Assembly (NCBI GenBank): GCA_035084275.1
Contig: CM068763.1
Location: 9,734,001 to 9,798,000 of the forward strand
DNA: 64,000 bases
Direction: 5' to 3'
DNA from: Hydrolagus colliei
Lineage: Eukaryota
Shown here: positions 9,451-43,275 of the stretch, piece by piece
How positions within the stretch are numbered: the first letter of the stretch is position 1
How the letters are laid out: each line of letters starts with the position of its first letter
Notes under the pieces: model-generated
Database searches by the model: none
Told to the model about the DNA's origin: nothing
What the model saw: the letters and a program-made list of their open reading frames with translations, nothing else
Position numbers and translations under genes: made by a program

Positions 9451-10267
9451 TTAGGACTTCGAGCGTGACCTTGACCGAGACACCGATCTTGAAGGTGAGC
9501 GCGATTTTGAATGTGATCTGGCTTTAGAGTTGGATTTTGCACTGGGATGAGTCGGGGATTTGACCTTCAATGGGGACAATGACCTCGACCTAGAGCGGGG
9601 TTTGGTACAGCTGGGTTTGGCCTGCTCCTTCACACCAGATTCTCCATCCATTTGATCATCCTCACCCTTAGTTTCCTTTTTCAGTGTCTCCAACTTCGTA
9701 TCGGGTTCGACCCTTTCTTTTGACCTGGACCTAGACCTACATTCTTTGTCTTCACCCTCGCTCTTTCTCTTTTTACTCTTATTTGAACCTCTCATTTTGC
9801 TTTCATGCTTGTGTTTTTTGCTTTTCCCTCCTTTGCTGTGACTCCTGCTCCTACTCCTACTTCTCTTCTTCCCCTTTCGTTCCTGGCTCTTACTGCGGCT
9901 CCTGCTCTTGTCCTTGCCCCTAACTTTGCTATTGGCTGGACTGCCACTAAGGCTTCGGCTCTTACTCTTCTCTTTGCTTCTACTTCTGTTGACGCTCTTT
10001 TCCCCGCCGTTATTCCTAATTTTGTCTCGGCCCAGACTCCGCTCATTCTCCCCGTTTTCATTTCGTTTCTCAACCTTTACCTCAGCACTGTTGCCCCTGA
10101 CCTTCTCTACACTCTTGCTTCTGCTCTTAGCTTTTCCTTCACTGCCGCTCCTACTCTTCCTCCTGATTTTCTTATCGTTGCTCCTGCTCCTGCTTGGGTT
10201 TTTGTTCTTGCTCGGACTCCGACTTTTGCTACCACTGCGACTCTTGCTTCTGGAGCGTGATCGCGAC
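9451..10267 (-). CDS. SRSF4: SRSF4 terminal coding exon 6 (long RS domain)
   Basis: Acceptor ctctttgaacag|G; RS/K/E-rich frame ending SRSRSRSKS-TAA. The six exons total 1470 nt = 489 aa plus stop, the length class of SRSF4 rather than SRSF5/6. Adjacent to MECR as in human. Confidence 0.95.
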
Positions 10268-10576
10268 CTGTTCAAAGAGGCAACGAGAAAGTTTGTCAGA
10301 TACGGTATTCTACTCCAAAGATCAAACTAAATTCACAAATAGACGTGCAAAGAAATGCTGCGACCAGCGAAGTCGACGTATATTTTGACTCTTGAAAGAG
10401 GGACCCTCAACACAGCACCATTTACACACAAAAAACATAACATCTTCGTCATCCTCTCCCTTCTAATGGCAAAATTTGTCTTGGGACATCTATAAAATGA
10501 ATTCCCTCCTCCCAATATAACACGTTAACACGTGATTCAGCATTGTTGAAACATAACAGCAAGAGGAAGTAGGATA

Positions 10577-10806
10577 GTAATAATAATCCTTGCATTTTGA
10601 TAAAGGCGCTTTTCAAGTCTTCTAGATGCCTCAAAGCACTTCATAGAATATACTATAAAGTGAATGGACTGTATATTTGTGAGCAAAACGTGGCAGCCAA
10701 TTATGCACAACAGTGTCCCACAAACAGCCGTGGACTGAAATGACCAATTTTTATTAAGGGTTATTTTGTGAGGGATTATTATGTGTGGAGTAAAGAAACT
10801 TGCCCA
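10577..10806 (-). mobile_element. Headless SINE in SRSF4 intron 5
   Basis: Core and tail match; starts about 18 nt downstream of the exon 5 donor. Confidence 0.85.
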
Positions 10807-10824
10807 AAAGGATAAAGCACATAC

Positions 10825-10899
10825 CTGGATCGGGATTGACTGCTCTTACTACTCCCACTCCGACTCTTACGAGAGCGATTTCTGCTTGGTGAGCGAGAC
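10825..10899 (-). CDS. SRSF4: SRSF4 coding exon 5 (RS domain)
   Basis: Acceptor aacctag|G; SRSPSRNRSRKSRSGSSKSSQSRS; donor AG|GTATGT; 75 nt, phase 2-2. Confidence 0.88.
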
Positions 10900-11202
10900 C
10901 TAGGTTTTTGTCGGATTGGGGGGTGGTCAGGAAAAATGCCAATTAGTAGATCATCTACACATTTCAACAACCATGACAAACACAGAGATGTTCAAAATGA
11001 ACACCAATTGGTCAAGATTGAAATTTGGTCGTTTCAGAACTAGACGAGAAACCACCTGTACTTGCAGTACTATTCAGGCAAACCACCCCATGTAATTAAT
11101 TTGCATTCCCGTTGAAATAAAGTACCACCACTTTTTGATAGATTTGGTTTTACTACATAAATTAGCAACAATCGCTCATTCCGAACATTTATCCTGTGGT
11201 AC

Positions 11203-11417
11203 CTTGAATGACTCCGGCTCCTGGAATATGAGCGTCGTCGTCTCGATGAAGGCCTGTCCTCAATCAGTCGGATTTTTCTGCCATTAACCTCTGACCCATC
11301 TAGTTTTTCAAGAGCTCTTTTCATGTCAGAATAAGATTTAAATTCAATCACACCTTCGTTCTTTCTTCCTTTGTGTGCATCTGCATATGTCACTTCTCCT
11401 GCTTGACGCATATAATC
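11203..11417 (-). CDS. SRSF4: SRSF4 coding exon 4 (RRM2 and start of RS domain)
   Basis: Acceptor ttgtgtag|GAT; [71 protein letters not shown]; donor AG|GTACCA; 215 nt. Confidence 0.97.
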
Positions 11418-12529
11418 CTACACAAAGAATAAAATGGCATGTAAACTTTCATCATCAACCTTTACTGAACTTCCCTTCTCGACTGAATTTGTGCTTCATA
11501 AATTCAACAGAACTTTTGTTACATTTACATGAATAAACTTCAGCTACAGATCTCATTCTAGACATATAAATGATGATAGACTTGTCAATACAAGGCAGAA
11601 AACTAATTTGGTATATTATACAATACTGGTTTGTTCTTATAACAATCCCTACTGATTCTGTGGAACATATTGTATACAAAAAGCTCAGAAGCATTACAGT
11701 AAAATTTCCATAAAATAAGCAAACCAATATTGGAATCTAATATGAATAATATCGCATTACATCCGCTTGAGATGCCCAGCCCAATGCCTCAATTTGGACC
11801 CTATGTTATTTTTCACTATATTTTTTAATTTCAGCGATACAAGCTTGTGAGTATGTTCACTGCAAACTGGCAGCTAATCCTAATTGGAACCGACAGTAAT
11901 ATCATCCTCTCCGATTCTGACATCTCAAATCCCACCTGGCCGCACGGCAACTTTTCGCCTTTGGCAACCAGCATTATCCCTACCAAAAATCAGCGAATAA
12001 TGCTGAAATTGTCAAAACTCAAGCCTAAACAAAGCAAATGAAGTCTTGTGCTGCATCCACCATTGATCTGACTTCTAGTCTTCGGCACTCCATATATATT
12101 TAAAAAATAATAAGTTTGGATCAGCCGCCTCCTCCCACGTACAAACAATGCCCAAAAGGCATGTACATATCTGCTGGGAATGCTTCAAAGTTACACCACC
12201 AGTGTCATTTTATTCAGTACCATATGTGAATTTTTCAAATCATGCTTTAATTTGAATACAATTAGATCATCTTTACTTGGATCATAGTTTTGTGTTAACA
12301 CTTAAAACAAGGGAAAATTGAGTTGTCAAATCTGTTTTAAAAAATGGTACAAATAGCCCATTGTAAACTGCATATCTCTAGTATGGAAAAGGAATGTAGG
12401 ATGTTTCTTATTCTATCTACAAAACAAATTTGAAGGCATAAGACGAAATACGCAATTTTGAAAGCTTCTACTACACGCAAAGGGAATTTGAAAGTGAGAA
12501 TTCAACATCAGTCATTAAATATCACAAAC

Positions 12530-12642
12530 CTTTAAATCTTGCCAGCTGCACCGACTAGATAAGTTCTCCACAACAAGTCTATATTCGGTGCGAGTCGGTG
12601 GCCCATATCGATCTCTTCCAGTTCTTCTATAACCATAACCAC
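12530..12642 (-). CDS. SRSF4: SRSF4 coding exon 3
   Basis: Acceptor cttaaag|GT; [38 protein letters not shown] (SWQDLKD pseudo-RRM motif); donor AAG|GTTTGT; 113 nt. Confidence 0.97.
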
Positions 12643-13030
12643 CTTTAAGGTGACAGGTAAACACAATAATAATATCTTAGGTACTGGCACCTCAGCAAAA
12701 TGGGATTTGAATTGCCTTCTAATAAAACTATAATAGTAAAAATTACACACATAATAAATGTACAAAGATTAACATTCCACCCTTCCCACAAACACTAGAC
12801 TATCATAACTGTTTAACGCTACAGAATTAACATTACTTCCCACCCGCACAAAATAGAATATCAAAATTTACAAGAAATCTACAAGTACAAATGTTACTTC
12901 AATGTTATATACTTTATTGTATTTTAATATAATCTGAAAAATTACACAAACATGCATATAAATTACATGAAAAGTGATAATGATTTGATAAAGTAACCAA
13001 GCCACTAAACCAGTTACCATCTATACTTAC

Positions 13031-13309
13031 GGTGAACAATGGTTTTCAGAATATCTGACATGAAAAAGATTTTCAGGCACCTATTTTCAGTTTTATCACA
13101 TCTGCCTCTAACCCTTGGGGTCCTCACCACCCAGGTCTAATGGCAAAAGTAGCAGTCGTCACATGGCTTCCTTAAGGTCAGCCAAAGGTCTTAGGTCTTA
13201 GGTCTTAGAGCCACTCATGGAAAGGTAACCCAAGGCCAGCAAATGGAACAGGCAGTCATCTTAGCCTCAAAGGACTCTTTTAATTAAAACATTGAGGTCT
13301 TCGTTAAGA
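13031..13309 (-). other. SRSF4: Putative SRSF4 poison (PTC/NMD) cassette exon in intron 2
   Basis: Acceptor tgatacaatag|TCTT, donor CC|GTAAGT (weaker alternative AG|GTGCCT at 13081/13080). Spliced to exon 2 it reads I-L-T-K-T-S-M-F-TAA (13286-13284). Contains blocks GAGGCTAAGATGACTGCC, CTTTGGCTGACCTTA, GGAAGCCATG, TTTTGCCATTAGAC and CCAAGGGTTAGA, which I recall from the SRSF4/5/6-family poison exon. Confidence 0.8.
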
Positions 13310-13576
13310 CTATTGTATCAACAATCACAATGAAAACAGCGATTCAATTAAGCTTTAAATGAGTTATAATAAAACAAACATAAATCAAATTATGAACATT
13401 AGGGTATATTTGAACACTAAATACAAATTTGAAAAGATGTAGTTTCTATGTGCAAAGGTTTAAAGTTGTAAATTACAAAATGTAAATTGCGACTAGTTAT
13501 TCTACATGTAATTTTACTTTTTAAAAAAAAACATTAAACACTTTCAAATCGTGACATATAATGTATAAATGCTTAC

Positions 13577-13719
13577 TGCGCTGAGAGCTGTAACCACCGT
13601 CCCTCCGAGGACCTCGAGCATGTTCAACGATTACTCTTTCCCCACAAAGTTCTTTACCATTCAGTTCATAAACTGCATCATCTGCATCTCGTGGATCATC
13701 AAACTCAACAAAGCCATAT
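13577..13719 (-). CDS. SRSF4: SRSF4 coding exon 2
   Basis: Acceptor cttatag|A; [47 protein letters not shown] (contains RNP1); donor A|GTAAGC; 143 nt, phase-compatible. Confidence 0.97.
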
Positions 13720-16700
13720 CTATAAGTGAGAAAATATCAGATTAAATTTTAATCACTCTTTATCGCAAATGGAGTCCCTAAGAAGGTGTGAAAGTACCTG
13801 AATGATATACACACTACGTAGTGTAAGGGTCTGAGTAAAGTCATAAAGCTAAAGAAGAGACTACTGCCCTGCGGATCTCAGGCCTTACAGAAACATATGT
13901 AGCACAAATTATTCCTATACAACGAACACGGTTAATGATCAACAACAAATATCAACAATTTGACCTGTAGAGTTCATTTTACACTAGTAAAATCGATCCT
14001 TTTAACAGTCAACTTCTGTTCTTAATCCACCTGTATCCCTAGAACATATGCTCAATATTCTAGTTTTACAGATTCATAACGTATGATGAGTCCATACTTC
14101 ATGGGATAATTTAAAACACACGCAGGCAGAACATACAAATGATATGGCCTTGTTAACTATTAAATGTTAGAATAAGTTTGAATTATACTGTAATCAAAAC
14201 GTGAATTTTGAAATAAATTCACAAACAAAAGAATCTCTTCTTTAGCATACAAGTCTTCCATAAAATATAAATTTGCTTAAGATATTAAGATTGCATCCTA
14301 ATAAATATGAAAGAGATGCTATCCAAAAGGATGTATTTTTAATGGAATTACACTTATGGAAAGCTTTAAAATAGTTAACGTGCTCTTAGAGAACATTAAA
14401 TGAGGAAAGCCACAGGACCAACAGAAAAGCAGCTGTGTTCTATGAATTTGTTCCGATGCTTCACATGCTATTGGGCTGTTTTCGGCGATCGTGCTGAAAG
14501 CAAGAATGTAATATTAATTCACTATATTCAAATTTAATTTACAGGATACCAATTGCATGAATGCACATATTTAATAATAAAGCAAACGTGGCTGCTGCTC
14601 AAATAGATCTTCATACAATGTGCAACAAAAACTGCCATGGGCACTTCAAATGGCTGTTTAAAACGTGAGGCTGGTACAGTATATTGAATACATTACCAGC
14701 ATTTATTTTAATTCATGGTTTCCAGTGGCAACAAAATGTTGACGATAGTTGCTCCTAATTACTGTAAACTAGTTAACCCTTTTTAAGGTAGGCTGATGAT
14801 TACCATCATTAAAATCAGCAAGACCATTTTCAAATTACTGAAACTAAATTCAATCCACATCAATAAAAGGTCACTGAGATGCATTGGAGGCTTCCCTCTT
14901 ATATAACTTTAATCAGAGTAAATTCAAACAACAGCTGAATTTAGTTCAGTGAATTTATATGAAAAAGGGAAAGTCTTAAATGCTGAAATCATTGATATAT
15001 CATAAAGCTATTGTTACAGTGCCTTGCAACAGTTCTTATTAACTCTGAAGTTTTAATAAATCAGAGTTGATAGTCAGGCACAGTTATGTTCATATACAAA
15101 TAACTAGTATGTTTATTTTTAAATTGTTACTACAAAGCCCTCAAAATTACTCTGTTACATTTAGGCTCATCCCTAGAATGGTACACAAGCAATCTGTGTG
15201 AAAATGGTACGGTAGTTGTTTTCACTATATGTGCTACAAATAGCACAGAGTGTAGAAGTCAAAAGCAGTATGAAGCTAAACTTGACAAATTGTGAAGGTG
15301 GGTTAAATATTTATATTTGGGTTAAATATTTTGGGGGCAGATAAACGTTAGCTATGATTTGTACACAAAACACATTGTGCATTTCGCACTGGAATGACGT
15401 CTTCCTTAGCGAATGCAATTAGAAATTGCACTATTGGAAGCTGTACTTACAAGTTTAGGCACACTACATTCCAGCACATTCTTATTTATCACTGCCAATT
15501 TCAATTCATTCCAATCTGAAAGTACAGTGGACGTTACAACAGAAAGCATTATGAACTTCAGTCAACTTATTACATAATGAATCGTATTTGAGAATACGGC
15601 GAGTTCCAATACTTCATAACCTTATACCCAGCTTTCAGTAACCATACATTTACTGGTATGATACTTGCACTGAATGTTCAACTGTACTTACTGTTGAAGT
15701 GCAAAAATAGACTTGGGTGTTCAAATGGATTTCAAACATCTGGTCTTCAAATTGTGGGTCCATGAAGAACTGAAAAGTTCATTGGAACACACTGATTCTA
15801 ACTTCAGTAACAGATGCTCCAGAATCTTTTAAGCATTATGTTGTGATGTAGGGTTGCAAACTAGTACCCTGCATGCTCAAACAGTTTGGATAATAATAAA
15901 TAGCATGAGTAATTAAACAAGTAGACAGAAAGAGTTTTCAAGTAACGTGCCAATCGACAATGACAGTCGCAAGGAAATATTCTACAGAATGTGTACATTT
16001 TTGACCTTCCATTTTTCATATCACATTTATTAAATATTGTACATGAAGTTTGACTTAATAATCCTCGCATTTGATATAGTGGCATATCACTTTATTGGGA
16101 TGTCTCAAAGTGCTTCAAAGGATATACTCCAAATGGATTGACAGTGGAATTTGTGGGTGAAATGTCCCATTGTTGTGCACAATTATGGCTTAAAATATTT
16201 TCAGTGTTTGGTGTTTATACTTTAGAGCTAAAGTCTACATAAAAATTTAGAGCCTGATGAAAAAAAATCTCAAAAGCTACAACTCAAAACACAATTTTCA
16301 CACTTTTCAGTGATGTGAAAATAAAATTGTGGCTAGAAATTGCTTGTTTACTTACATGAAAAATATCTATAAATCACTTCTTAGATTACATTCTCCTGCA
16401 ATAAATTTACAAACTGCACCGCCGTTTCATTATTAGTTCGGTAAAATCCCTTTGAAAATCAATTTAACTGAACTGGCTAAATGGAATTGAAACTCAAAAG
16501 AGTTATATGTGATTGGAGATTTCAGATGCATTAACCTTAACCATCTGATATTTAGTTGTATCAATCTTCAGCATGTTTAAAACCAGTGCTCAGCCAATGA
16601 AAAACTTTAGGAAAAGCTTTATACAATTCAGCTGGGTGTGTGAGGTAAAACATTGCAAAGTGTGGCTTCCTAGTGTTTTTTATGGATGCTTTTAACAAAA

Positions 16701-17514
16701 AAAAGTTATGAACACAGAAGGGGGAAAAAGAGGATATTTTCACAATTTATGCCACGGAACGGTATAAATCGACAAGATACAAGTTCTAACCAACATTTGA
16801 GAGAAAACGATTAAGATTGACATTTCAAGTTTGACTTGTTTTTTAAAACAACTCAAACTTCAGGTAGCAGCTTCCCTTTTCAGGTGTTGTTTGATTTGTA
16901 ATTTTGTTGTTGTTTTCCTCTATTTCCCATGGGTACCATATTGCATGGAGACAATAGATTCACACTAACACATGGGCCATTGACTTTAAAATAAGTTTGT
17001 TTGGTGTATGCGTACACAGTGGGAGTTTTTTTGAATGGCAAGAGAGATATTATTGATCGGGGAAATGTGGGCAGGGAAGTGAAAGGGCAAGGTTGTGGGT
17101 GGAGTATGTGAACAGGCGAGGGCAGGAGGAGGAAGAGCGTGAGTGAATGAAGATGTGTGAATGGTTGAGGCAGTATGGATGCGGGGAAATGATTGTAGTG
17201 GGAAATATGAGTGTGGGGGAGGGGGAAGGAATGAGTGTGGGGGAGGGAAGAATGAGTGGTGGGGGCTGGTGGGGGAGAAAAAGGAATGTGTCTGGGGAGG
17301 AACGGAAAAATGAGTCGGGGATATATGCAGAGGAGTGTGGAGTTAATGTGGCAGTGAGTGAAGGTGTGCAGGGAGTGAACATGTGTGAGTGCGTGTGTGT
17401 GTGTGGGGTGGGGGGAAGTAAGTGAGTGAACGTGGGATGTGTGGTTGCTCACTAAAGCGTTCTGAGACGCTATCCAGCACGGAGGGAGCTACATAAGAGC
17501 AAGCTGATGTCCTT

Positions 17515-17881
17515 GTGGTCGAATTCAAGATCTTTGACCTTACTTTGGCCTTTGCCCCCTCCTACCTCCCCAACTTGCTGTCCCCCTATCAACCTCCCTG
17601 CCCCCTCCGTTCAGCAGGCGCTAGCCTGCTCCATGTCCCCCCCGCCCTACCATCGGTGGCCATGCTTTCAGCTTCTCTGGCTCCCCACCCCCACCATCCC
17701 TTCGCCTCGCTCCCTCACTCTTCAAGATCTTCCTCTTCGACCGTGCCTTCTGCTGCCCTCCCAACTCTCTCCCTCTCCCCTCCCCCCCTCTCTCCACCCC
17801 ATCTTGCTTGGGTCCCAACCGCCCCCTGACTGTTCAGCGCGTTGGGACGCTCTACACATGTCATTTTGTTGTTGTTGTTGT
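17515..17881 (+). mobile_element. L2-clade LINE 3' fragment in SRSF4 intron 1
   Basis: Encodes a degenerate EFKI..L..APSYL..LL..Y.P..PLRSAG L2 ORF2 C-terminus; ends in a (GTT)n tail. Confidence 0.8.
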
Positions 17882-18357
17882 GAGTGGGGTGGTGGGGGGG
17901 GGGGGGGGGGGGAGAGGAGAGAGAGAGCAAATTCGCATGCGCAATGACCATCTAGCCGGTTTGGCGCGCGTGTGACGCACTCGCCTTATGAGGGGGGGGG
18001 GGGGGGGGGGGGAGAGAGAGACGACAAAAGACGACCTCAACCGCCCCCCCCCCCCCCCCCACCGCAACATACATACACACACCCTTCCCCCCCCCCCCAC
18101 CCATCCTCACCTCCTGTACCGGGGGGGGGGGGGGAGGGGGGCGGGGAGAGGCTTTTATAAAAGCAAAACAAAAAATCACAGCGACCGTGAGGTAACCGAG
18201 GAGTCATCGGTCGGTCGCTAGAGGCGATTTGAGGCCTGAGAGGGGAGCGAGCGAGTGACCCGTCGGCGCCATTTTCTTTTCCCACCCCCCTCTCCCTCCC
18301 TCCCTTTTCCTCCTCCTCCCTCTCCCTCCTCCCCTCCCTCTGCCTCCTCTCACTCAC

Positions 18358-18464
18358 CCGTTCTTGATATCCACCTCCAGGATTTTACCGTAACCTTTGA
18401 AGAATCGCTCCACGTCCCTCTCCCGGGCCTGGTAGCTCAGCCTGCCGATGTAAACCCGCGGCAT
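18358..18464 (-). CDS. SRSF4: SRSF4 coding exon 1 (RRM1 N-terminus)
   Basis: ATG at 18464; translates MPRVYIGRLSYQARERDVERFFKGYGKILEVDIKNG; donor GG|GTGAGT; 107 nt. Near-identical to the human SRSF4 N-terminus as recalled. Confidence 0.97.
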
Positions 18465-29640: not shown

Positions 29641-29673
29641 ATGGCCTTTAAGCACAGAATCGCTGGCACTAAG
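29641..29673 (+). CDS. TMEM244-like coding exon 1
   Basis: ATG GCC TTT AAG CAC AGA ATC GCT GGC ACT AAG|GTACTG = MAFKHRIAGTK; 33 nt, phase 0, the size I recall for human TMEM244 exon 1 (MALQVRVAPSK). Confidence 0.75.
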
Positions 29674-30611
29674 GTACTGTATAATTGGGTGGGTGTATGT
29701 GTATTTTTTTAGGTGAAAACGTTTCCCCTGTTTGTGAAAAAAACCCTAAATAAACAAATCCTGGAACATGGAGAATGGATTCTGCAGCAAAGTCCTTGTT
29801 AATCCCCTCTTAGAAAAGCGGATGTGAATTTATCTATATCTATATATATATATATATGTGTGTGTGTATGTGTGTGTCTCTTATTTCTCCTCTTCAAATT
29901 GTACAGTAATATCCTGTTTTGAAAGTTAGACTGTAATGGTACATTTGAATAGCTCTGTATGTGTGTGGGTGTGTGTATATGTGCATGTGAAAAAATACAA
30001 TCAAGTCATTTCTGCAAAAGAATATTATATTTGATATATCTATCTATATATCTATATATCTGTCGGTACACATTTTAAAGGGTTATATCAGCAACTGAGA
30101 TTGCAGCAAATTACAGTGTGTCGGTGTGAAATTGACATGTAATAGACGTGACATGAAGTTGAGTGCTCACCAGTGAGTGTCTTGTAAGAGCTGCTGCCTT
30201 CATTCCCTTTAAATAGCTTCCAGATATTGCAATCACCGAGATAGATTTAAGTCTTTCATCGAGTGTGTTGCCTCCGCATTACTATTCAGAGATATCGAGA
30301 AGAAGCCTCGACATCTTTTATATATACTGCAATACATATACACACACATACACAATACACACACAATACACACAATTTAATATAAAACAAAACAAGCTCG
30401 AAGTGGAAACAGAGCATTTTCAATCATTTGAATTATTTTTGCTAAATTATTCATCTTAATGTATAACTTCCCTCCCAACTCCTCCATGGGTTTTTCTTCC
30501 CCCAATGGACTATTTTCACCCACTGATCTAGGATACGTTTGTGGGTGTGTTTGTAAGGGATGGGGTAGGAGGTGGGGTTGGGGGGTGCGCGGGTGGAAAG
30601 ACAATATATCT

Positions 30612-30850
30612 GCCTAATCCCACCCCCCACCCCCCCACCCCCCCGACCCACCCTACCATCGGTGGACGGGCTTTCAGCCTCTCTACTCCCCACACTCTGG
30701 AACTCCATCTCACAGTCCCCTTCGCCTCGCTCCCTCCCTCCCTCGCCTCCTTCAAGGCCGGTCTCGGGACCCTCCTCTTCGACCGTGCCTTCTGCCGCCC
30801 TCCCAACTCTCTCCCTCCCATCTTACCTCTCTCCATCCCCTGCCCCCTGC
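30612..30850 (+). mobile_element. L2-clade LINE 3' fragment
   Basis: PTIGGRAFS...LWNSI...SLASFKAGLGTLLF. Confidence 0.8.
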
Positions 30851-31202
30851 CCCTGTCGATGGCAAGCTATACTGTTTTTTTAGCTGATAGATTCCCCAAC
30901 AGTTATGCCAATAATTAGTGTCCCCCAAGCCTTGGCTCTTGCTAACCTGCGCCTAATACTTTACGGAATTATATAAGCCTGATGTGTCCCTGCACAGAGA
31001 GACAGAGAGACAAAGAGAGAGTTCCATCTCACCATCTATCTCTGGGATTTCCCCATTCAGTGCGATGCATTGATTTCTCAGTTTGGTTTGGACATCCTTA
31101 AGCAATGGCGATGGGTTTCCACATGTGCCAAGACACCCAGCTGACCCAAACAAAAATGAATGCATGTATACATGAGGAGGAGGATGAGGAGGAGGAGGAA
31201 CT

Positions 31203-31504
31203 GTGTAGCTTAGTGGTAGAGCAATCACTTTGCAAGCGAGAGACCCGGGTTCAATTCCAGGCAGGGGGCAAAACAGTGGGCAAGTTTCCTTATGCCACCC
31301 ACCTAATCACAATACCTTTTTCAAAAAATTGGTCATTCAATCCATGACTGTTTGTGGGGACGCTGCTGTGCGCAATTGGCTGCCGCGTTTCACCCACAAA
31401 TATACAGTCAATTCACTTTACAATATATTCTGTAGAGTGCTTTGAGATGTCTACAAGATGCGAAAAGCGCTAAATCAAATGCAAGGATTGCATTATTATT
31501 ATTA
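31203..31504 (+). mobile_element. SINE (same family)
   Basis: Head-to-tail match. Confidence 0.85.
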
Positions 31505-32544
31505 AACTGATGTTCTATCCAATTTCCTTCCCCATTTCTCTCCCACCCCCACCACTCTTTGCTTCCCCTCCCACTTTGCTTTCTTCCACCCCCCCCCCTC
31601 CCTCCCCTCCATTCCCCCCCCCCCCCCATCCACTGTCCAAGGGCCAAAATGGTGTTGATAATAATGTGGGTTCCTGTTGAGTACTGCTCTGAGTTCCTTG
31701 AATATGCAACGTCTGGATTGGTTGAGGTGGCTGCTAACACACAGTTACCTTAAATTAGGGATAGCAGACAGTGAGTGTTCATCTGTTGATCGTGAAATGT
31801 TGCAGCACAGAGACAGAAATATTGGCCCATCAAGCCGGAGTTGCTGGATTTTTTTCCTCCACTTTTGAGCGACCCGAGATCTCGCCAATTGATGGCACAA
31901 CACTGCAAATTAACCTTGCGACATATAATGCCACAGCACAAAACATGTAGCTTGTTCATTCATTTCTCTGATCCATTTACCCGACGGGGCCTTCAGTAAT
32001 TACAGTGTTGTTGCGTGAGATTAGGAAAGAAAATGTAAGTTTGCCTCCCGCTTCAAGATTTTGTTTATTTGAAATGTCCATTTTATTTTTCTGAAATGCT
32101 GGTTTTCAAATGTGGCAATTTCATCCCATAATTGTCAGGCACGATGTTTTCCTCTCTCTCCAAAAGTGTTTCCTTTTAGGATTATCTTAGAAATGACAAG
32201 AGTTTCTGGCGCCATATTCACTTAGTGAGATTCTGCACTTTCTCGCTTCACATCAAAGGGTGTAACAAGACGAGGAACATAGATGCAGAACATTTCAGCA
32301 ACTATCTGCCTTTGCCAGTCGCTACACAAAATATCAAGTTGAAGATTGATCCTTTAATCCACATCTCACAGATTAAATTCTCCCCGTCTAATAATTTCGT
32401 CCTGAGGATAGATAAATGCATGATCATGTTACATCATGGGCTGGGAATTAAACCTGGCCTCTTCCGAGTCTGTTTCATATTACGCAATGGACATGCAAGC
32501 TAAGCTGTGTGTGCAGTGAGGAGCTGTAGCTATTATTTATGAAC

Positions 32545-32662
32545 AAATAATAATAATAATAATACTTCCATTTGATATAGTGCTTTTCACGTCTTCTAGA
32601 CGTCTCAAAGCGCTTCACAGAATATTCTGTAAAGCGAATTTAACTGTATATTTGTGGGCGAA
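32545..32662 (-). mobile_element. SINE 3' fragment
   Basis: Tail hairpin and (TAA)n. Confidence 0.8.
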
Positions 32663-32754
32663 AGAAGGGAGAGGACTGCAAAGCTGTAACCATCAGATAT
32701 ATAATCATGCTTATAATCTTTCACACAACACATTATTCTTCTGAAAGCCTAGTG

Positions 32755-33028
32755 CAGTGGTTTCCAACCTCGGGTCCCGACCCAAACCAGGGTCGCGGGG
32801 GTCCTCAGTAGGGTCACAAAGGGTCATCAGAAAAAATATGTAATGCTGAAAAGTGCCCGAGGCGACACCGCCAAACAATTTGTATGAAACACTTACGGGT
32901 TTCGCTGAGTCCACAAAAGAGATGGAGATGTTGTCTTGGCTGAGTTTCGCTTCAGTCGCGATGTCGCCCCCCAAGGGTCGGGAGGACCTGTTGGCCAAGT
33001 AGATACACGTTAGGTTTGGTGGAACCCT
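32755..33028. mobile_element. Probable non-autonomous hAT (Charlie/URR1-like) DNA transposon remnant
   Basis: Begins CAGTGGTTTCCAACCT-CGGGTCCCGACCC...GGGTCGCG, typical of a hAT TIR with GGGTC(G) subterminal repeats; right end degenerate (AGGTTTGGTGGAACCCT). Confidence 0.55.
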
Positions 33029-33749
33029 AAGCCATACAGAGCAGCAGTTTGAGGTTTAAATACGAGAGGAACAGCTGATAGTATTCTTATAGTACAATAA
33101 TAACAATTTACTTTTAACAACAATAATAATAATTATTTTTATTATTGCCCTTGGGATCTTGAACCCCCAAGTCTAGATTGGTTCACTGCAGTCTCGTAGC
33201 AGATCTGAAACCAAGGATCAGGCCAACCCATGTTTAAATTAATATTCTATCATAGTTGAAAAGGAGAGTTTTTCCTGTTGTTGCCTCAAGACTCTCCTCT
33301 TCGATGGACCCATTGGCAACTCCTAATCCCTTCTTCCTTACAGACAGCTTGGGTCTGAAGCAATGACTGTCTAGTGCCTTGGGATGTCCTCCTGACGTGA
33401 AAGGCGCTATACAAGTGTAATTTTATTATTGTTAAAGGTCAATTATTTGCTTGCTTTAACGGCCATTTGTTGCTTTATGTGCGTGTATATATGCTGAATG
33501 TATATATATATATATAAATATATATATCGCTATATAAAAAACGTCTGCCCCGTTTTCCCACAAGCGCACAGTCACTACACTTGAGAGCAATTAGCCGCGA
33601 AGCCCTTTGAGAGGCTTCAGCGTCTCACCATTCTGTGCTGCAATGCAGTGAGACTCGGGTATGTAGGGCTCCTGTCACGATGTCATATTTGATATAGCCA
33701 GTTTCACCCGATTGAAATCAAATGTGTTCTCGGATTTTGTATTTTACAG

Positions 33750-33835
33750 ACAGTGATCTTGAACCTGTTGCTATGTCTGCTGATTTTCTACACCCTTTAC
33801 TACATGATTGGGAGTGTCTGCTTTGGTGCTTTCAG
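33750..33835 (+). CDS. TMEM244-like coding exon 2 (first TM helix)
   Basis: Acceptor ttttacag|; TVILNLLLCLLIFYTLYYMIGSVCFGAF; donor AG|GTAAGA; 86 nt. Confidence 0.9.
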
Positions 33836-34025
33836 GTAAGATATACATAATGTAGAGACACTCTTGTTGATTTCATGTAGGGGAATTAATGAGAGAATTC
33901 AAACACATTCATTGGAATCATATTCCATTCAATTTCATCTTTTGTTAAATAGAAAAACGCACCTTGTTTTAGGTCCTAAAAAAAAATCAATGTTCTCTGA
34001 CTCATTCCTCTGACTCATCCCTTGT

Positions 34026-34333
34026 GGAGCTCAGTGGTTAGAGCACTCGCTTTACAAGCGTGAGACCTGTGTTCGAATCCAGGCAGATCAGGGCGGAACC
34101 TTGGGCAAGTTTCCCTTACTCCACACAAAAAAAACCCCACTAGAATAAAAAATTGTCATTCTCAATCCAATGTTTGTGGGGACACTGCTGTGCTCAATTG
34201 GCTGCCGTGTTTCGCTTTCCCACAAATATACAGTCAATTCACTTTACAGTATATTCTGTGTGAAGCGCTTTGAGGCAATAAGATGTGAAAACCACTAGAT
34301 TCAAATGCAAGGATTATTATTATTATTATTATT
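34026..34333 (+). mobile_element. SINE (same family)
   Basis: Head-to-tail match. Confidence 0.87.
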
Positions 34334-34354
34334 GACCAAGAGGATGAGGAAGTC

Positions 34355-34500
34355 AGTCTCGGCAGACATCCCAGTGCAGTGATGGGTGAGTGCTGTATTG
34401 TTGGAGGCGCATTCCTTCAGTTGAGACATTAAACCTCAGCCTTACTGATTGGCGTTAAAGATCCCTGGATGTTATTGGTAAAAGAGCGAGGTGGGGGAAG
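34355..34500 (+). mobile_element. Old Deu-domain SINE fragment
   Basis: GACATCCCAGTGCAGT...GAGTGCTGTATTGTTGGAGG...GAGACATTAAACC...GTTAAAGATCCC...AAGAGC resembles the Deu domain as recalled. Confidence 0.65.
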
Positions 34501-34758
34501 GCGAGATTGAGGTTGAGTGCTGTGGTGGGAGGTCTCTATTGTTGCCTGGACAACAATCCCATGTTTAAATGAATAAATAATACAACTAATGATTACGTTT
34601 GACAGCTATTATCTGTGACATACCTCTGACTTGGGCAGGATTCTTATCATCACCCACTTATCATCTATTTTCCACCTCTCCATTTCCATTTGACAACCTT
34701 TCTGTTTGATATCTTCTGTAACCTTTTTTTGTTTTGTCATTCCCTTTCCATCTCGCAG

Positions 34759-34832
34759 ACTTGAATCATTTGATGGGTTAATTCCGTTTGACTTTAAAAC
34801 ACAAGCCATAAAGTCCAGTTCTAAATACCTAG
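34759..34832 (+). CDS. TMEM244-like coding exon 3
   Basis: Acceptor tctcgcag|A; (R)LESFDGLIPFDFKTQAIKSSSKYL with the family PFDFKT motif; donor G|GTAAGC; 74 nt. Confidence 0.92.
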
Positions 34833-35444
34833 GTAAGCAGCGCATCCATTAATCAAGTTGAAGTCAGTGGAAAAAAGGCGATTCGTAAAGCATTTTTACA
34901 CCGTTCAACTGTCATGATTTGAAACTCACTGGAAGAATAATTTTGTCTTATTCTGTTAATATATATTATATATATGTGTGTATGTATTAAGACTAGTTAA
35001 CATTCCTATTACCCTTTCTACAAAAAAAAATCTGTCTGGCTTTCCTTTCCTTCCCTTTGCTTCCTTTTAACTTTTTTCCCCCTGGCTTTTAACACTCTTT
35101 AGCGATTTGACTGAGTTAAACTTTTATCAATTGATTGTCATGTTTGTGAGTTGACGCCAGCGCTGTGATGAGGGGCTCTGTGTGGAGCCAATTCACTGTA
35201 CGCCTTCCTTGGGTGCATTACATTGGCAGTCCAACCGGGAGACACTCTATACATAAAGGCTGTTGCTTTGGGAAATCAAATCGTTGCAACTAATTTAATT
35301 TGGAGGAAAAAACACACAAACACACACAAGTGTGTACTGTGGGATGCATTGAAGGAACTCCTTAATTGTTTTATTCTGTGTGCATTTTTGCGATTGCAAA
35401 TTTGGGACGAGGGCAATTTACACCATCTATTTTGATCACACCAG

Positions 35445-35570
35445 TGAACCTCCTGTCTATGGAGTTGACCTACTTTGCGAGCGGTATGGCGTTTGTTCCA
35501 GTGGTTAAGAACTGGGTGTGGGATTATGCAATCACCGTTACACTTATCCACATCCTCCTGAGCTCGGCAG
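35445..35570 (+). CDS. TMEM244-like coding exon 4
   Basis: Acceptor caccag|TG; VNLLSMELTYFASGMAFVPVVKNWVWDYAITVTLIHILLSSA (WVWDYA motif); donor G|GTGAGT; 126 nt. Confidence 0.93.
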
Positions 35571-35591
35571 GTGAGTGCACAAACATAGGAG

Positions 35592-35840
35592 NNNNNNNNN
35601 NNNNNNNNNNNNNNNNNNNNNNNNNNNNNNNNNNNNNNNNNNNNNNNNNNNNNNNNNNNNNNNNNNNNNNNNNNNNNNNNNNNNNNNNNNNNNNNNNNNN
35701 NNNNNNNNNNNNNNNNNNNNNNNNNNNNNNNNNNNNNNNNNNNNNNNNNNNNNNNNNNNNNNNNNNNNNNNNNNNNNNNNNNNNNNNNNNNNNNNNNNNN
35801 NNNNNNNNNNNNNNNNNNNNNNNNNNNNNNNNNNNNNNNN
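35592..35840. other. Assembly gap (249 N) in TMEM244-like intron 4
   Basis: Run of N. The flanking exons join in phase, so no coding exon needs to lie in the gap. Confidence 0.99.
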
Positions 35841-35980
35841 AGGTCTCCAGGAAGGAGAAGGGGTTGTTGAGGCCAGGACTTGGGGAGTCATTTAAGAATT
35901 TAAGCGTAATAGGAGGATGGTAGAGTGGGTGATTCTGAATTGAAATGGCCAATCTCACTCGAATCTCTCTATTTTGATAT

Positions 35981-36143
35981 TGAGAGTGTGTGAGAGTGAG
36001 TGAGTGAGAGAGTGTGAGAGTGAGTGATGAGTGTGCGATGAGTGTGAGTGAGTGTGCGATGAGTGTGAGTGAGTGTGAGAGCAAGTGAGTGAGAGTGCGT
36101 GATGAGTGAGAGAGCGTGTGAGAGAGTACGAGAGTGAGTGAGA
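35981..36143 (+). repeat. (GAGT/GT/GA)n compound microsatellite
   Basis: Visible directly. Confidence 0.9.
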
Positions 36144-36657
36144 GGAGGATCAGAGAGCCGGAGAAACAAGAAACTCTGCAGCTAAAAAATAAGCAAGAAG
36201 TCCACAGTCTATTATTTATTTGTGTTGAAAATCACCCTACCAGCGCTGATGAAGTCATTAGCCTTTGCTGAGCATCAGTACATCAGAGGAGAGAGACACA
36301 CTCTATACCTGTCACAATACACGCTGTCTTGTCTCTCAGCACACTAGCTGGATTGAGAATTCCTATAAGATGCAGTGGTGGCTGCCAATTTCTGTTCAGG
36401 TTTGTGTTCAGGCGGCCAGGTAAAAATACACACAGCAGCACAGACACATCAACTGCTTCTGTGTGCCACTGTTTTCTTTGTTTTTCCCACAAAAATACGG
36501 TAAAATCACTTTACAGCAGATCCTGTGTCACGCGAGATATCTCAAAGACGCAATAAGGAGCTCGATCAAATGCAAGCTTATTACTATTATCACAAGCCTT
36601 CCATGATGAGAAATGGCCCTTTCTTTTGTTGATGGCAGTTTTGAATTTAATTTGCAG

Positions 36658-36702
36658 TGATGGCTGAATTCCCTCTTGTCTGGCAATGGTGGGTGGCACT
36701 GG
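36658..36702 (+). CDS. TMEM244-like coding exon 5
   Basis: Acceptor tttgcag|TG; VMAEFPLVWQWWVAL (cf. human VMLEFPLTSHWWAAL); donor G|GTAAGT; 45 nt. Confidence 0.9.
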
Positions 36703-36844
36703 GTAAGTCTGACCTCATTTTGCCCTGATGTTACCAAGCAGGAGTGGGTGGGGGGGGCACGATACAACGTTGACAGAGGCTCGGGAGAGTGCATCTGCAT
36801 TTTGTCATCAAGTGGGGTGGGGGGAGGGAGGGAATAGGGGAAGA

Positions 36845-37515
36845 TCCTGTAGCTCAGTGGTTAGATCACTCGCCTTATAAGAGTGAGACCTGTGTTCGAA
36901 TCCAGGCAGATCAGGGCAAAACCTTGGGCAACTTTCCTCACTCCGGTGGTGGGTTTCTGCCTGTAGCAGATAACTGGCTGGCTCCCAACCCCCCCACGCC
37001 CCCCCACCCCACACTCGTCAACACACAAAAAGAATTATCAGATTGTAAACGTTTTTTTTCTTTCCACTTCCAGGAAATTAAATTGTCCTAAATAAATCTA
37101 GAGGTAGATTTGGTAAGATGATCATATAATGCATCAATAAATAGGGGAAAAAAAGCCATCTCTTACAAATTTATAAATTATCAAAGGATAATTCTGTAGG
37201 GATAGTCTGGTAGCTCAGTGTCAGTGGTTAGAGCACTCGCCTTACAAGTGTGAGACCTGTGTTCGAATCCAGGCAGGTCAGGGTGAAATCTTGGCAAGTT
37301 TTGTTACTCCACATGCCTAATAATAATCCCTCCAAATAATAAAATTGATCATTTCAACCCACAACTGTTTGGGGGACTCTGCTGTGCGCAATTGGCTGCC
37401 ACGTTTCACCCACAAATATACAGTCAATTCATTCTACCTTATATTCTGTGAAGCGCTTTGAGACGTTTGGAAGACGTGAGCAGTGCTATATCAAATTCAA
37501 GGGTTAATAATAAAT
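36845..37515 (+). mobile_element. SINE head fragment (36845-36943) and full SINE (37209-37515)
   Basis: Family matches. Confidence 0.85.
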
Positions 37516-37521
37516 ATTATG

Positions 37522-37630
37522 TCATAAGGGACAAAAACGGGTCATTGGAATTGAAGTACAGATCAACCATGATTTAATAAAATGGTAGAACAGGCTTGAG
37601 GGGCTGAATGGCTTACTCCTGTTCCTGTGG
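37522..37630 (+). mobile_element. CR1-clade LINE 3' end (shark HER1-like)
   Basis: GATCAACCATGAT...AATGG..GAACAGGCTTGAGGGGCTGAATGGCTTACTCCTGTTCCT resembles chondrichthyan CR1 tails as recalled. Confidence 0.7.
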
Positions 37631-38231
37631 TTGGTCTTACCGATTTCAGGAATTACAAACTGAAGTGAAGCAGTACTTTTCTCACCTCGTTTTGCCCTTC
37701 AGGTTGCAATGGGGGTCAAATATTTTTTTTTCTCCAAGTTAGAGGGTAATGGGCAGCTCTCGATGCTAAGATAAGATGATAATGAAATCGAGAGACGCGC
37801 GAGGTCCCTATGAACCACAGGAGCAACAAGTGGCTAGTTTATCTGCTGAACCACTCAATCGTTGCCTGTCTTGTAATTCGCTGGAGAGATAGCGGCTGTC
37901 CTCTGAAAACACAAAGGTTATGAATTTTCCTTATGGTAATCTGTCCCTCCCTCCCTCCCTCCCTGTTGGGTCTCTACACTTTCATTTCCATTTCAAGCTG
38001 ACTGCGACACAAGACTTATAGGATTATGAATTTTATGAGGTGGGAATCTGAAGGAATATTGAATTTGTAACACTTGAAATGCAGTCTGACTAAACTATTT
38101 TTGACAGAGAATTTCATTAAAAAGAGACACACACATACCATTCTCACAAAGCACAGAGCCGGTAATTAGCATTGTGTATTTATGTGACTGCAATGAGCTC
38201 ACGTTATATATTTTTTTACCTCTCCCTGTAG

Positions 38232-38323
38232 GTTTGGGCCTAGTGTTGATGATAGGTAATGGTCATATAATTGCACACTTCATTTGCCAGAAAGACCAGA
38301 GTTATCCTTCAAACAGCTTCTGA
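38232..38323 (+). CDS. TMEM244-like terminal coding exon 6
   Basis: Strong acceptor ttttttacctctccctgtag|GT; GLGLVLMIGNGHIIAHFICQKDQSYPSNSF-TGA. Total CDS 456 nt = 151 aa. Downstream AATAAA at 38778 and 39022. Confidence 0.85.
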
Positions 38324-39886
38324 GGGGGACAGATCAAGCCAATTTCAAGCTTGGCAGGAAGAACAAAAGCATCGTGACTTTAAATCATCTGGACAAATTA
38401 CATTATATCTAGAACAATTTTATAAAAGGGTGGAATCAGATTTTTTTTTACAAAAAAGACCTACTTTGGAAATAATCGCTTTATAATTCTATTAACCTCT
38501 CCAGTCACCACCAGACAAGCTGGAAAATCGTGAACCTTACACGTGTGACTGGCCCTTGAAACCCAAAGCCCATTATCAGCGCAGAAGTGGACTTTTCAGG
38601 AATGGTTCCACGTTTAGGGGAACTTTCAAACCTGTTTCATAAGGAGTTTCTCTATTTCTCCTCAATCCCTTTCCCCTACATTGAAATTTCCTGGGACATC
38701 CTTTTGTTTGAAGCCAAGACAAACTGCATGACATCCCACAGTAGAAGAAATCTGAAGTTCGAACAATGAACCCACACAATAAATGAGGGTACGATTTGTT
38801 GTGGTTGGATCGGGCTCCATGCTGCCTTGCAATGTGAATCACTCGAACAATGTTTATGTCATGAACAAGCTCATGTATATCCAGTTTTTCCAATATGTAT
38901 AAGAGTGGCTGTAAAAAGAGATTAAGTTAACTAATGGTAATGCAACACCCAATTTGTCTACTAGATTATTTTGTCCCCAAAATGTTTTTCATATAACGAA
39001 TGTCAAATGTGTGTTCTTGCGAATAAATTTCAATCATAAATGTACGAAAGTGGAGTGCAAGGAATTTAATTAACCGAGGGGCACTTCTTAATCCACAATA
39101 TCCTTGTAACATAATACTGTATGGGCTGGTTATGCAGTAATTGCAATATTGATGCAGAAATGACTGCAGGCTCCTAAGGGTTAATGTGGTTTACAGCAAC
39201 AGTTCAACATTTAACTTAACCCCCCCCACCCCCCCCTGCACATTTTATCAATTTCATGCCCATTTATACTGAGATCTATTTTATTTATATTATATGTAAT
39301 GTGTTCTTTTAATCTGCTCTGATCCAATTTGTCAGGAGCCAGCATTGAATATGATGCCGCAGATATGCCAAGAGTTCAAACGAATTCTGCCTTTATATAA
39401 GAATATCACCCTCAAGTCAAAGATTTTATTGCACTGTCTTGCTTTAATACACTCGGTGTGTTGACAGCCACTGCTCTCCGAGCCCTTCCTGTTTACCGAG
39501 ATCGTCTTTCTCATCAACATTATATGTGGGCTGGTAATTTCATCTTTATCTGACCTGAAGGCACACTTTGTTGACTTTGCAATAAAATACCGCAGAAGCA
39601 CAGGAGACGAGGGCACTGACAGCTAATTCAACAAACCCATGGTTCACTATTGACGTCAGGCTTCCAGCACTTGGGTTGTAGACTCAATTACCTTAAAGCC
39701 TACAATACAAAAAGACATTTAGTTTTAATTCACTTATTCAGTTTCAAGAGCTGTGCATTTTAACTGTCTCCACGTTTGTCGACGAGAGTGTAATGTACTG
39801 TGGGATGTTTGTTGCTTTCTTCAATACTTGGAAGCGATGGGGAAACATTTCAGCCCAACTCCAAATCCGATGCAGGGTTCTGAATG

Positions 39887-43111: not shown

Positions 43112-43275
43112 TCACATGATTAAAATCTGTTTGGTGCCAGCGAAGGGCTTGGTGGCAGCCTCCAGGGCAACTCGATATTCCTGCAGCGGGACTTCAGTAC
43201 AGGCCGGCGCCGTCAGCTTCCCAGCACGAATTAGGTCGCAAAGCTCCGTGATCATCTTCTGCAGTTTGCCCGGCT
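43112..43275 (-). CDS. MECR: MECR terminal coding exon 10
   Basis: Acceptor tttttgcag|AG; [57 protein letters not shown], a typical MECR KQILxM C-terminus. Candidate AATAAA at 42352-42347. Confidence 0.96.

Follow-up and report, generated by a model that had tools for sequence, protein, structure and literature searches.

A SYS1-family gene beside MECR in the chimaera Hydrolagus colliei: very likely an ohnologue of TMEM244, and one probably lost in mammals

SYS1, the sole characterised member of its family of membrane proteins, binds the acetylated N-terminal helix of ARFRP1, recruits this GTPase to the trans-Golgi and starts the ARL1/ARL5 tethering cascade (PMC7864062, PMC6829661); a preprint describes how it packs with the single-pass protein JTB through helices (bioRxiv 10.1101/2025.09.09.675133). 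Human TMEM244 (C6orf191) is described in one report as a gene of five exons and 128 amino acids, poorly conserved, expressed at low levels with a bias towards brain and pituitary, and best regarded as an lncRNA, a long RNA without coding function (PMC9963807). Here we examine a stretch of 64,000 nucleotides (nt) from the chimaera Hydrolagus colliei (assembly GCA_035084275.1, contig CM068763.1, positions 9,734,001 to 9,798,000 of the forward strand; this whole stretch is called the window and its chromosome C30). It holds a gene of TMEM244 type that is very likely an ohnologue of TMEM244, lying on a duplicated block and kept by most jawed vertebrates.

The window gene comprises six exons of 33/86/74/126/45/92 nt (phases 0/2/1/1/1) with canonical borders, each of exons 2-6 being preceded by AG and each of exons 1-5 followed by GT. 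Its frame runs stop-free for 151 amino acids to a TGA. The initial annotation had proposed these in-phase exons, this protein and the motifs PFDFKT, WVWDYA and EFP..WW.ALG, and all of them were reproduced at the same positions (Table 1). Its further remark that only exon 4 appears in the open-reading-frame track holds at a threshold of at least 100 amino acids, but at 60 amino acids the exon-6 frame is listed as well. When six proteins were searched by tblastn against the whole window, four (gar, caecilian, turtle and wrasse) matched all five of exons 2-6, with no other match at E<=0.5, while the amphioxus protein matched four of these exons and the capuchin protein two. Because the vertebrate queries hit these exons and nothing else in the window, the match is not a chance one. 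The 11-codon exon 1 drew no match from any of the six queries. Over its full length, exon 1 included, the predicted protein is identical without gaps at 143 of 151 residues to an NCBI-annotated 'transmembrane protein 244' of Callorhinchus milii (P0001 below), and a run of N inside intron 4 affects no exon. We regard a six-exon TMEM244-type gene as confirmed here, intact and real, with splice junctions that rest on homology.

A second intact six-exon copy lies in the same genome at C3:11,829,264-11,863,038. Its exons measure 33/86/74/126/45/95 nt, the first five identical in size to those of the window gene, and it encodes 152 amino acids, with 78 of 151 residues shared between the two copies (52%), a nonsynonymous divergence (dN) of 0.30 and a synonymous divergence (dS) saturated at about 3.2. 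Two protein searches of the genome, with the exon-4 peptide and with P0001, returned two loci, the window on C30 and C3 at 11.83-11.86 Mb, and no further copy besides a stop-containing match on C21 (E=2.9). Likewise, a deep profile run over 590 kb of genome stretches, including parts of related blocks on C2 and C26, found the C3 exons alone.

The surroundings of the two copies correspond. Specifically, both are flanked by 4.1-CTD, TMEM200 and receptor-phosphatase genes that agree in order and strand between the blocks, two further blocks of this kind lie on C2 and C26, and the identities of the MBT and TMEM200 genes pair the C30 block with the C3 block. The MAM exon on C3 best matches PTPRK (162.9 bits vs 121.2 for PTPRM). 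These observations bear out the proposal that the window copy sits on a paralogous SRSF4-MECR block, as well as the prediction of a second copy near ptprk and epb41l2, which was found on C3 between an EPB41-family gene and TMEM200 on one side and a RhoGAP gene and PTPRK on the other. We take the RhoGAP gene to be ARHGAP18; its RhoGAP exon could not be named from the PDB. In human, TMEM244 lies on 6q22-23 near PTPRK, TMEM200A and EPB41L2, and SRSF4 and MECR lie on 1p35 with PTPRU, TMEM200B and EPB41 and with no gene known between the two. In published work, human TMEM244 is placed at 6q22.33, beside L3MBTL3 and near LAMA2 (PMC3996012, PMC10011630). A table for chicken gives EPB41, TMEM200B, SRSF4, MECR and PTPRU with no named gene between (PMC11507135), and an unordered list for human 1p35 contains the same five genes and no TMEM244-like gene (PMC8269103).

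To place the two copies, we used a tree of 65 full-length representative proteins, chosen from 328 together with those from a taxon look-up. The window gene falls in a clade of 26 rows (clade B, support 100/97) with proteins of sharks, rays, gar, bichir, sturgeon, teleosts, coelacanth, lungfish, caecilian, salamander, turtles, emu and lizards. The other clade (clade A, 29 rows) contains the C3 copy, all six mammals in the tree and a second set of proteins from sharks, bichir, sturgeon, teleosts, coelacanth, amphibians, reptiles and birds; sharks, bichir, sturgeon, coelacanth and lizards thus have one protein in each clade. Amphioxus (at 98/95) and other invertebrates branch outside both, two long-branched frog proteins take no clear position in the tree, as is also the case for hagfish and lamprey, and a single gene was found in each of amphioxus, hagfish, lamprey, tunicate, hemichordate and coral (one cluster per taxon looked up). 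Approximately unbiased (AU) tests with 24 proteins reject both a union of the window lineage with bony-vertebrate clade A (p=1.1e-4) and a union of the two chimaera copies as a single clade (p=2e-58). Because both clades hold cartilaginous and bony vertebrates, with amphioxus outside, the duplication occurred after the amphioxus split and before the split of sharks from bony fishes. An early vertebrate genome doubling is the likely source of the pair, and an origin in the second doubling would fit the appearance of the C30 and C3 blocks as nearest sisters.

These results agree with the earlier view that the window gene is not the direct orthologue of human TMEM244, since mammals group with the C3 copy on the PTPRK block. 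The description of it as a sister copy retained in this animal stands as regards an ohnologue on a paralogous block, and has to be adjusted in that the gene is no chimaera relic: it is annotated across gnathostomes, under its sister's name, in sharks, rays, ray-finned fishes, coelacanth, lungfish, caecilians, salamanders, turtles, crocodile, emu and lizards. Frogs carry, besides their clade-A protein, a fast-evolving TMEM244-type protein (P0190, P0194, P0245, P0327), which may belong to clade B or represent a third copy; these divergent sequences fit clade A or clade B equally (p=0.34 each).

The mammalian side was addressed with protein searches, for which the best 37 of 37, 120 of 125, 120 of 274 and 150 of 265 matches were listed. 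By profile score, 183 proteins from the named searches divide into 65 of clade A, 111 of clade B and 7 unassigned. All 14 mammalian proteins among them belong to clade A, as do those of marmoset, pangolin and pika added by look-up (17/17), and among the matches listed no mammal occurs in the 111 clade-B proteins. No clade-B protein of a neognath bird or a snake was present among the named matches either. A further 129 representatives include 51 unnamed proteins that lean to clade B, and the one that looks amniote-like by its nearest named neighbour is a monitor-lizard isoform. As judged from these protein searches, the clade-B gene is probably absent from mammals, and the loss claimed in the initial annotation is hence likely.

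Exon 6 of the window gene had been considered a feature of this copy that the human reference protein lacks. The second half of this statement holds, as the 128 human residues end after exon 5, but the exon is not special to the window copy. Both chimaera copies have it, as do all 14 mammalian proteins (that of capuchin among them) from the named searches, and it is ancestral to both clades; in mammals it ends in a conserved IYPxL-acidic-F tail, one of the 14 being a low-quality model with an altered end. The proposed match to the human exon structure is borne out by primers in the supplement of PMC9963807, which, read by hand, show four human borders (where exons 1 and 3 end and where exons 4 and 5 begin) to coincide with those of the window gene in codon and phase. 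According to these primers, the human mRNA reads on past the site of the exon-5 donor, from W-A-A-L-G to I-S-K-L-L, in keeping with a length of 128 residues. The human reference therefore reads through the exon-5 donor and is without the exon-6 part, which makes up most of helix 4. A product of three and a quarter helices would be expected to be unstable. Because the reference lacks exon 6 and most of helix 4, there is another explanation for the lncRNA label of human TMEM244, and the human gene possibly holds an unannotated sixth exon. Three points count against an event confined to human: the pika and pangolin models also end shortly after the exon-5 donor, the 152-residue mammalian proteins are automatic predictions, and rapid amplification of cDNA ends in one cell line is reported to have given no sixth human exon (PMC9963807).

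What kind of protein is encoded is indicated by the Pfam model SYS1 (PF09801), on which P0001, a 95% identical stand-in for the window protein, scores 32.4 bits against a cut-off of 22.3 over residues 14-141; single exons of the window gene gave no match to it (0/4). The top matches in the ESM Atlas are all TMEM244/SYS1 clusters. A family that had been called poorly characterised is thus, at the level of fold family, Pfam SYS1, and it is as TMEM244 that it is little known. Prediction with AlphaFold2 for P0001 from 112 sequences gives four helices (residues 2-38, 61-85, 89-108 and 115-142; mean predicted local distance difference test, pLDDT, 82.5; predicted template-modelling score 0.74), replacing a shallower model from 38 sequences (pLDDT 65.5), and it matches the roughly four hydrophobic segments noted earlier, which are visible as hydropathy peaks, the second being weaker. 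The fold comparison suggested at the outset returned no solved relative, either by sequence (0 of 177,635) or by Foldseek at E<=0.001 for either model, and the best VIA-align Z scores of 7.0 and 7.7 (TMEM16F, root-mean-square deviation 5.1, 128 aligned) lie within chance for helical bundles. The best-conserved positions across the 112 sequences are F24, Y25, P49, F50, W90, D91, Y92, H100, W117 and W118. With its PFDF, WDY, H100, FP..WW and M..G motifs and its six-exon layout, the window gene carries the full set that marks the TMEM244 subfamily.

This subfamily reaches well beyond vertebrates. We find proteins of TMEM244 type in amphioxus, tunicate, hemichordate, brachiopod, snail and coral; more distant relatives come from Reclinomonas, Andalucia, Ancoracysta, Chroomonas and Chlamydomonas (5 of 10 look-ups, the others being one acoel and four without an organism name), and these protist proteins may be of TMEM244 type or make up a third branch. 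The split between TMEM244-type proteins and SYS1 appears to be old, as is suggested by the higher scores of all five protist proteins against the window protein (42-55 bits) than against SYS1 (17-35 bits, with a single SYS1 as comparator). The sole SYS1 gene found in the chimaera genome (C26:8,496,814-8,498,945) carries a one-base frameshift in its last exon, well conserved on both sides, which is probably an assembly error.

From these features we propose that the window protein may be a four-helix membrane protein of the SYS1 family that serves at the Golgi or endosomes as a docking site for an ARF-like GTPase, whose N-terminal helix it would bind. The short loop W90-D91-Y92 would lie in the cytosol together with both ends, and the residues common with SYS1 (D91, T95, H100, P112, W117-W118, M128 and G132) would build the four-helix bundle and a binding surface, with the changed loop favouring a partner other than, or additional to, ARFRP1. 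A weak lead only is ARL13A, which appears in a table row among database partners of TMEM244 homologues (PMC6987440). Among the proteins with exon 6, the last 10 residues contain a tyrosine motif of the form Yxx-hydrophobic in 51 of 59 of clade A and 53 of 74 of clade B. Tyrosine-based motifs of this form act as sorting-type signals. On balance, the best explanation of the whole is, in our judgement, a SYS1-family ohnologue, likely lost in mammals, that acts as a SYS1-like GTPase dock, and we hold it with somewhat better than even confidence. Taken separately, a role as an adaptor of the secretory pathway seems somewhat more likely than not from the comparisons made, and docking of a small GTPase specifically is a tentative assignment that we place below an even chance.

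Several observations weigh against this explanation. On the functional side, knockout of SYS1 alone frees ARFRP1 in HeLa cells, giving no sign of a back-up (PMC6829661), and no human TMEM244 protein, native or FLAG-tagged, is reported to have been detected even with a proteasome inhibitor (PMC9963807). The tail of the window protein is without the tyrosine motif, and the charge of loop 1 (4 K/R, 3 D/E) gives no decision on topology. Identity to the true SYS1 is 16%, the SYS1 loop before the conserved Asp is replaced, and full-length TMEM244-type proteins reach 21-61 bits on the SYS1 model, against 56 for each of two single exons of true SYS1. On the evolutionary side, the support for clade A (93/87) falls below star level; the hagfish and lamprey proteins and three divergent frog proteins are unplaced, and the tree does not by itself give the timing at a single doubling. 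The name PTPRU for the C30 receptor phosphatase, whose phosphatase exons lie at 9.94-9.95 Mb, rests on position; neither the 90 kb that follow the window (C30:9,798,001-9,888,000) nor a genome search yielded its MAM exon. The absence from mammals rests on the matches listed in protein searches, and the named matches included no marsupial of either clade.

The alternative that survives best, though we consider it unlikely, accepts the same origin and makes the protein a cargo receptor, chaperone or auxiliary subunit that binds another membrane protein of the secretory pathway through its helices, with no GTPase docking. It would account for the aromatic and intramembrane character of the best-conserved positions, it has a precedent in the packing of SYS1 itself on JTB via helices (bioRxiv 10.1101/2025.09.09.675133), and it is compatible with the low, brain- and pituitary-biased human expression (PMC9963807); against it, the only family member with a characterised role is a GTPase dock, and the core D-[FY]-x-x-T-x4-H is kept. 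A small membrane enzyme, or a handler of lipids or ions, that uses D91 and H100 is improbable. Each of these residues is kept in 98% of the 112 sequences, from chimaera to protists, but both are also present in SYS1, to which the cited passages on that protein assign no catalytic role, and there is no further conserved polar cluster. Least of all do we expect the window gene to be the human TMEM244 orthologue relocated to a different block, or a duplicate specific to chimaeras: although both Callorhinchus proteins bear the NCBI name 'transmembrane protein 244', the C3 copy on the PTPRK block groups with mammals, the AU tests reject both arrangements, and sharks, bichir, sturgeon, coelacanth and lizards have one protein per clade.

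The features of the locus and of the two blocks are collected in Table 1. The upstream neighbour of the window gene is distinct from SRSF6; we take it to be SRSF4, a name consistent with published gene order.

Table 1. Positions of the window gene, its neighbours and the two paralogous blocks (window coordinates unless a chromosome is given)
Feature	Position	Strand	Remarks
Coding exon 1	29641..29673	+	33 nt, residues 1-11, GT donor; 10/11 residues identical to P0001; equal size in C3 copy
Coding exon 2	33750..33835	+	86 nt; predicted helix 1 with F24-Y25..Y29
Coding exon 3	34759..34832	+	74 nt; loop carrying PFDF motif
Coding exon 4	35445..35570	+	126 nt; predicted helices 2-3 with W90-D91-Y92, T95, H100
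Coding exon 5	36658..36702	+	45 nt; FP..WW motif, first part of predicted helix 4
Coding exon 6	38232..38323	+	92 nt including stop; residues 122-151; 21/28 residues of predicted helix 4 (M128, G132) and tail
Two candidate polyadenylation signals AATAAA	38778 and 39022 (span 38778..39027)	+	predicted from sequence
Upstream neighbour, SRSF4/5/6-type splicing factor (coding span)	9451..18464	-	ATG at 18464; head to head with window gene
Downstream neighbour MECR, last coding exon	about 43112..43273	-	PDB 2vcy, E=1e-15; tail to tail with window gene
C30 block: 4.1-CTD gene	C30 9.679 Mb	+	
C30 block: TMEM200	C30 9.693 Mb	-	
C30 block: 3xMBT gene	C30 9.713-9.720 Mb	-	followed by SRSF4 (-), window gene (+), MECR (-)
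C30 block: tandem-phosphatase receptor	C30 9.942-9.953 Mb	+	after MECR
C3 block: 4.1-CTD gene	C3 11.50 Mb	+	
C3 block: TMEM200	C3 11.657 Mb	-	followed by TMEM244 copy (+)
C3 block: RhoGAP	C3 11.926-11.931 Mb	+	
C3 block: MAM exon	C3 12.388 Mb		
C3 block: phosphatase domains	C3 12.66-12.69 Mb		

Some further observations concern these blocks. The three-MBT gene on C30 (9,713,208-9,720,467, minus strand) is of L3MBTL1/3/4 type, with L3MBTL3 as its best PDB match, and lies 14-21 kb before the window start, in tandem behind SRSF4 just as an MBT gene lies behind an SRSF6-like gene on C26. Genes of L3MBTL type on C30, C2, C26 and C303 make four, and the C30 gene is a candidate fourth L3MBTL ohnologue; no human gene is known at its place. 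On C3, no MBT gene was found between TMEM200 and TMEM244 (11.66-11.83 Mb), but a 200-base run of N is present there, and the unplaced 40-kb contig C303 with its L3MBTL-type gene may belong in this gap. A fourth TMEM200-family open frame (447 amino acids, C3:16,031,019) is closest to the C2 copy (44%) and lies 4.4 Mb from the C3 block. Within the window, a tRNA-headed repeat of about 300 nt, resembling a short interspersed element, is present in 19 copies of at least 150 nt that are 70-81% alike (for example 31198-31500, 34023-34324 and 37223-37505), and this repeat accounts for the four ARAGORN and eight Rfam tRNA calls.

Ohnologues that cartilaginous fishes have kept and mammals lack are commonly reported, and as a gene this one is modest news. 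In literature outside subscription journals, we found no paper that describes a TMEM244 paralogue or links TMEM244 with SYS1; the clade-B proteins already have database entries, in which both paralogues go by a single name, and with this shared name fish 'tmem244' results may concern either gene. Loss of tmem244 is reported in the rare minnow (PMC8809535). Most of the interest lies in what the window gene says about the human one, as the six-exon form shows TMEM244 whole. At the protein level the family is conserved between chimaera and mammals and has coral and protist relatives, in contrast to the 'poorly conserved' gene of PMC9963807. One broader picture, which we put forward as doubtful, is that TMEM244 proteins constitute, beside SYS1 itself, another ancient branch of GTPase docks of SYS1 type that reaches jakobids, a cryptophyte, Ancoracysta and a green alga and has two gnathostome copies, one lost in mammals, and that the human copy is being lost or is mis-ended, so that a truncated coding gene, whose product lacks most of helix 4 and the sorting tail and would be unstable, lies behind the Sezary-syndrome lncRNA marker.

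Compared with known systems, the window protein resembles the SYS1 of the same genome (156 amino acids) in length, in its four-helix layout and in the residues D91, T95, H100, P112, W117-W118, M128 and G132. It differs in sequence (16% identity) and in having six coding exons rather than three, and SYS1 has a locus of its own on C26 at 8.50 Mb; the low identity and the different exon layout rule out the window gene as a SYS1 orthologue. The PF(D/E) and WDY motifs are absent from SYS1, whereas the basic loop and the C-terminal motif of SYS1 are absent from the window protein. With TMEM244 of clade A the window gene shares exon sizes and phases, 48-52% identity, the motifs and the Pfam SYS1 match. 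Clade B is set apart by a basic pair, mostly KR, RR or KK, before WVWDY in its 111 proteins, where 61 of 65 clade-A proteins have the acidic EE, by a variable tail in place of the fixed IYPxL[DE][DE]F-type tail, by a different gene block, and by having no mammalian member found. Finally, orthologues of the window gene (one clade, 100/97) include P0001 and what is annotated as 'TMEM244-like' in gar, teleosts, coelacanth and turtles; these show no substantive difference from it and are automatic annotations that bear the sister's name.

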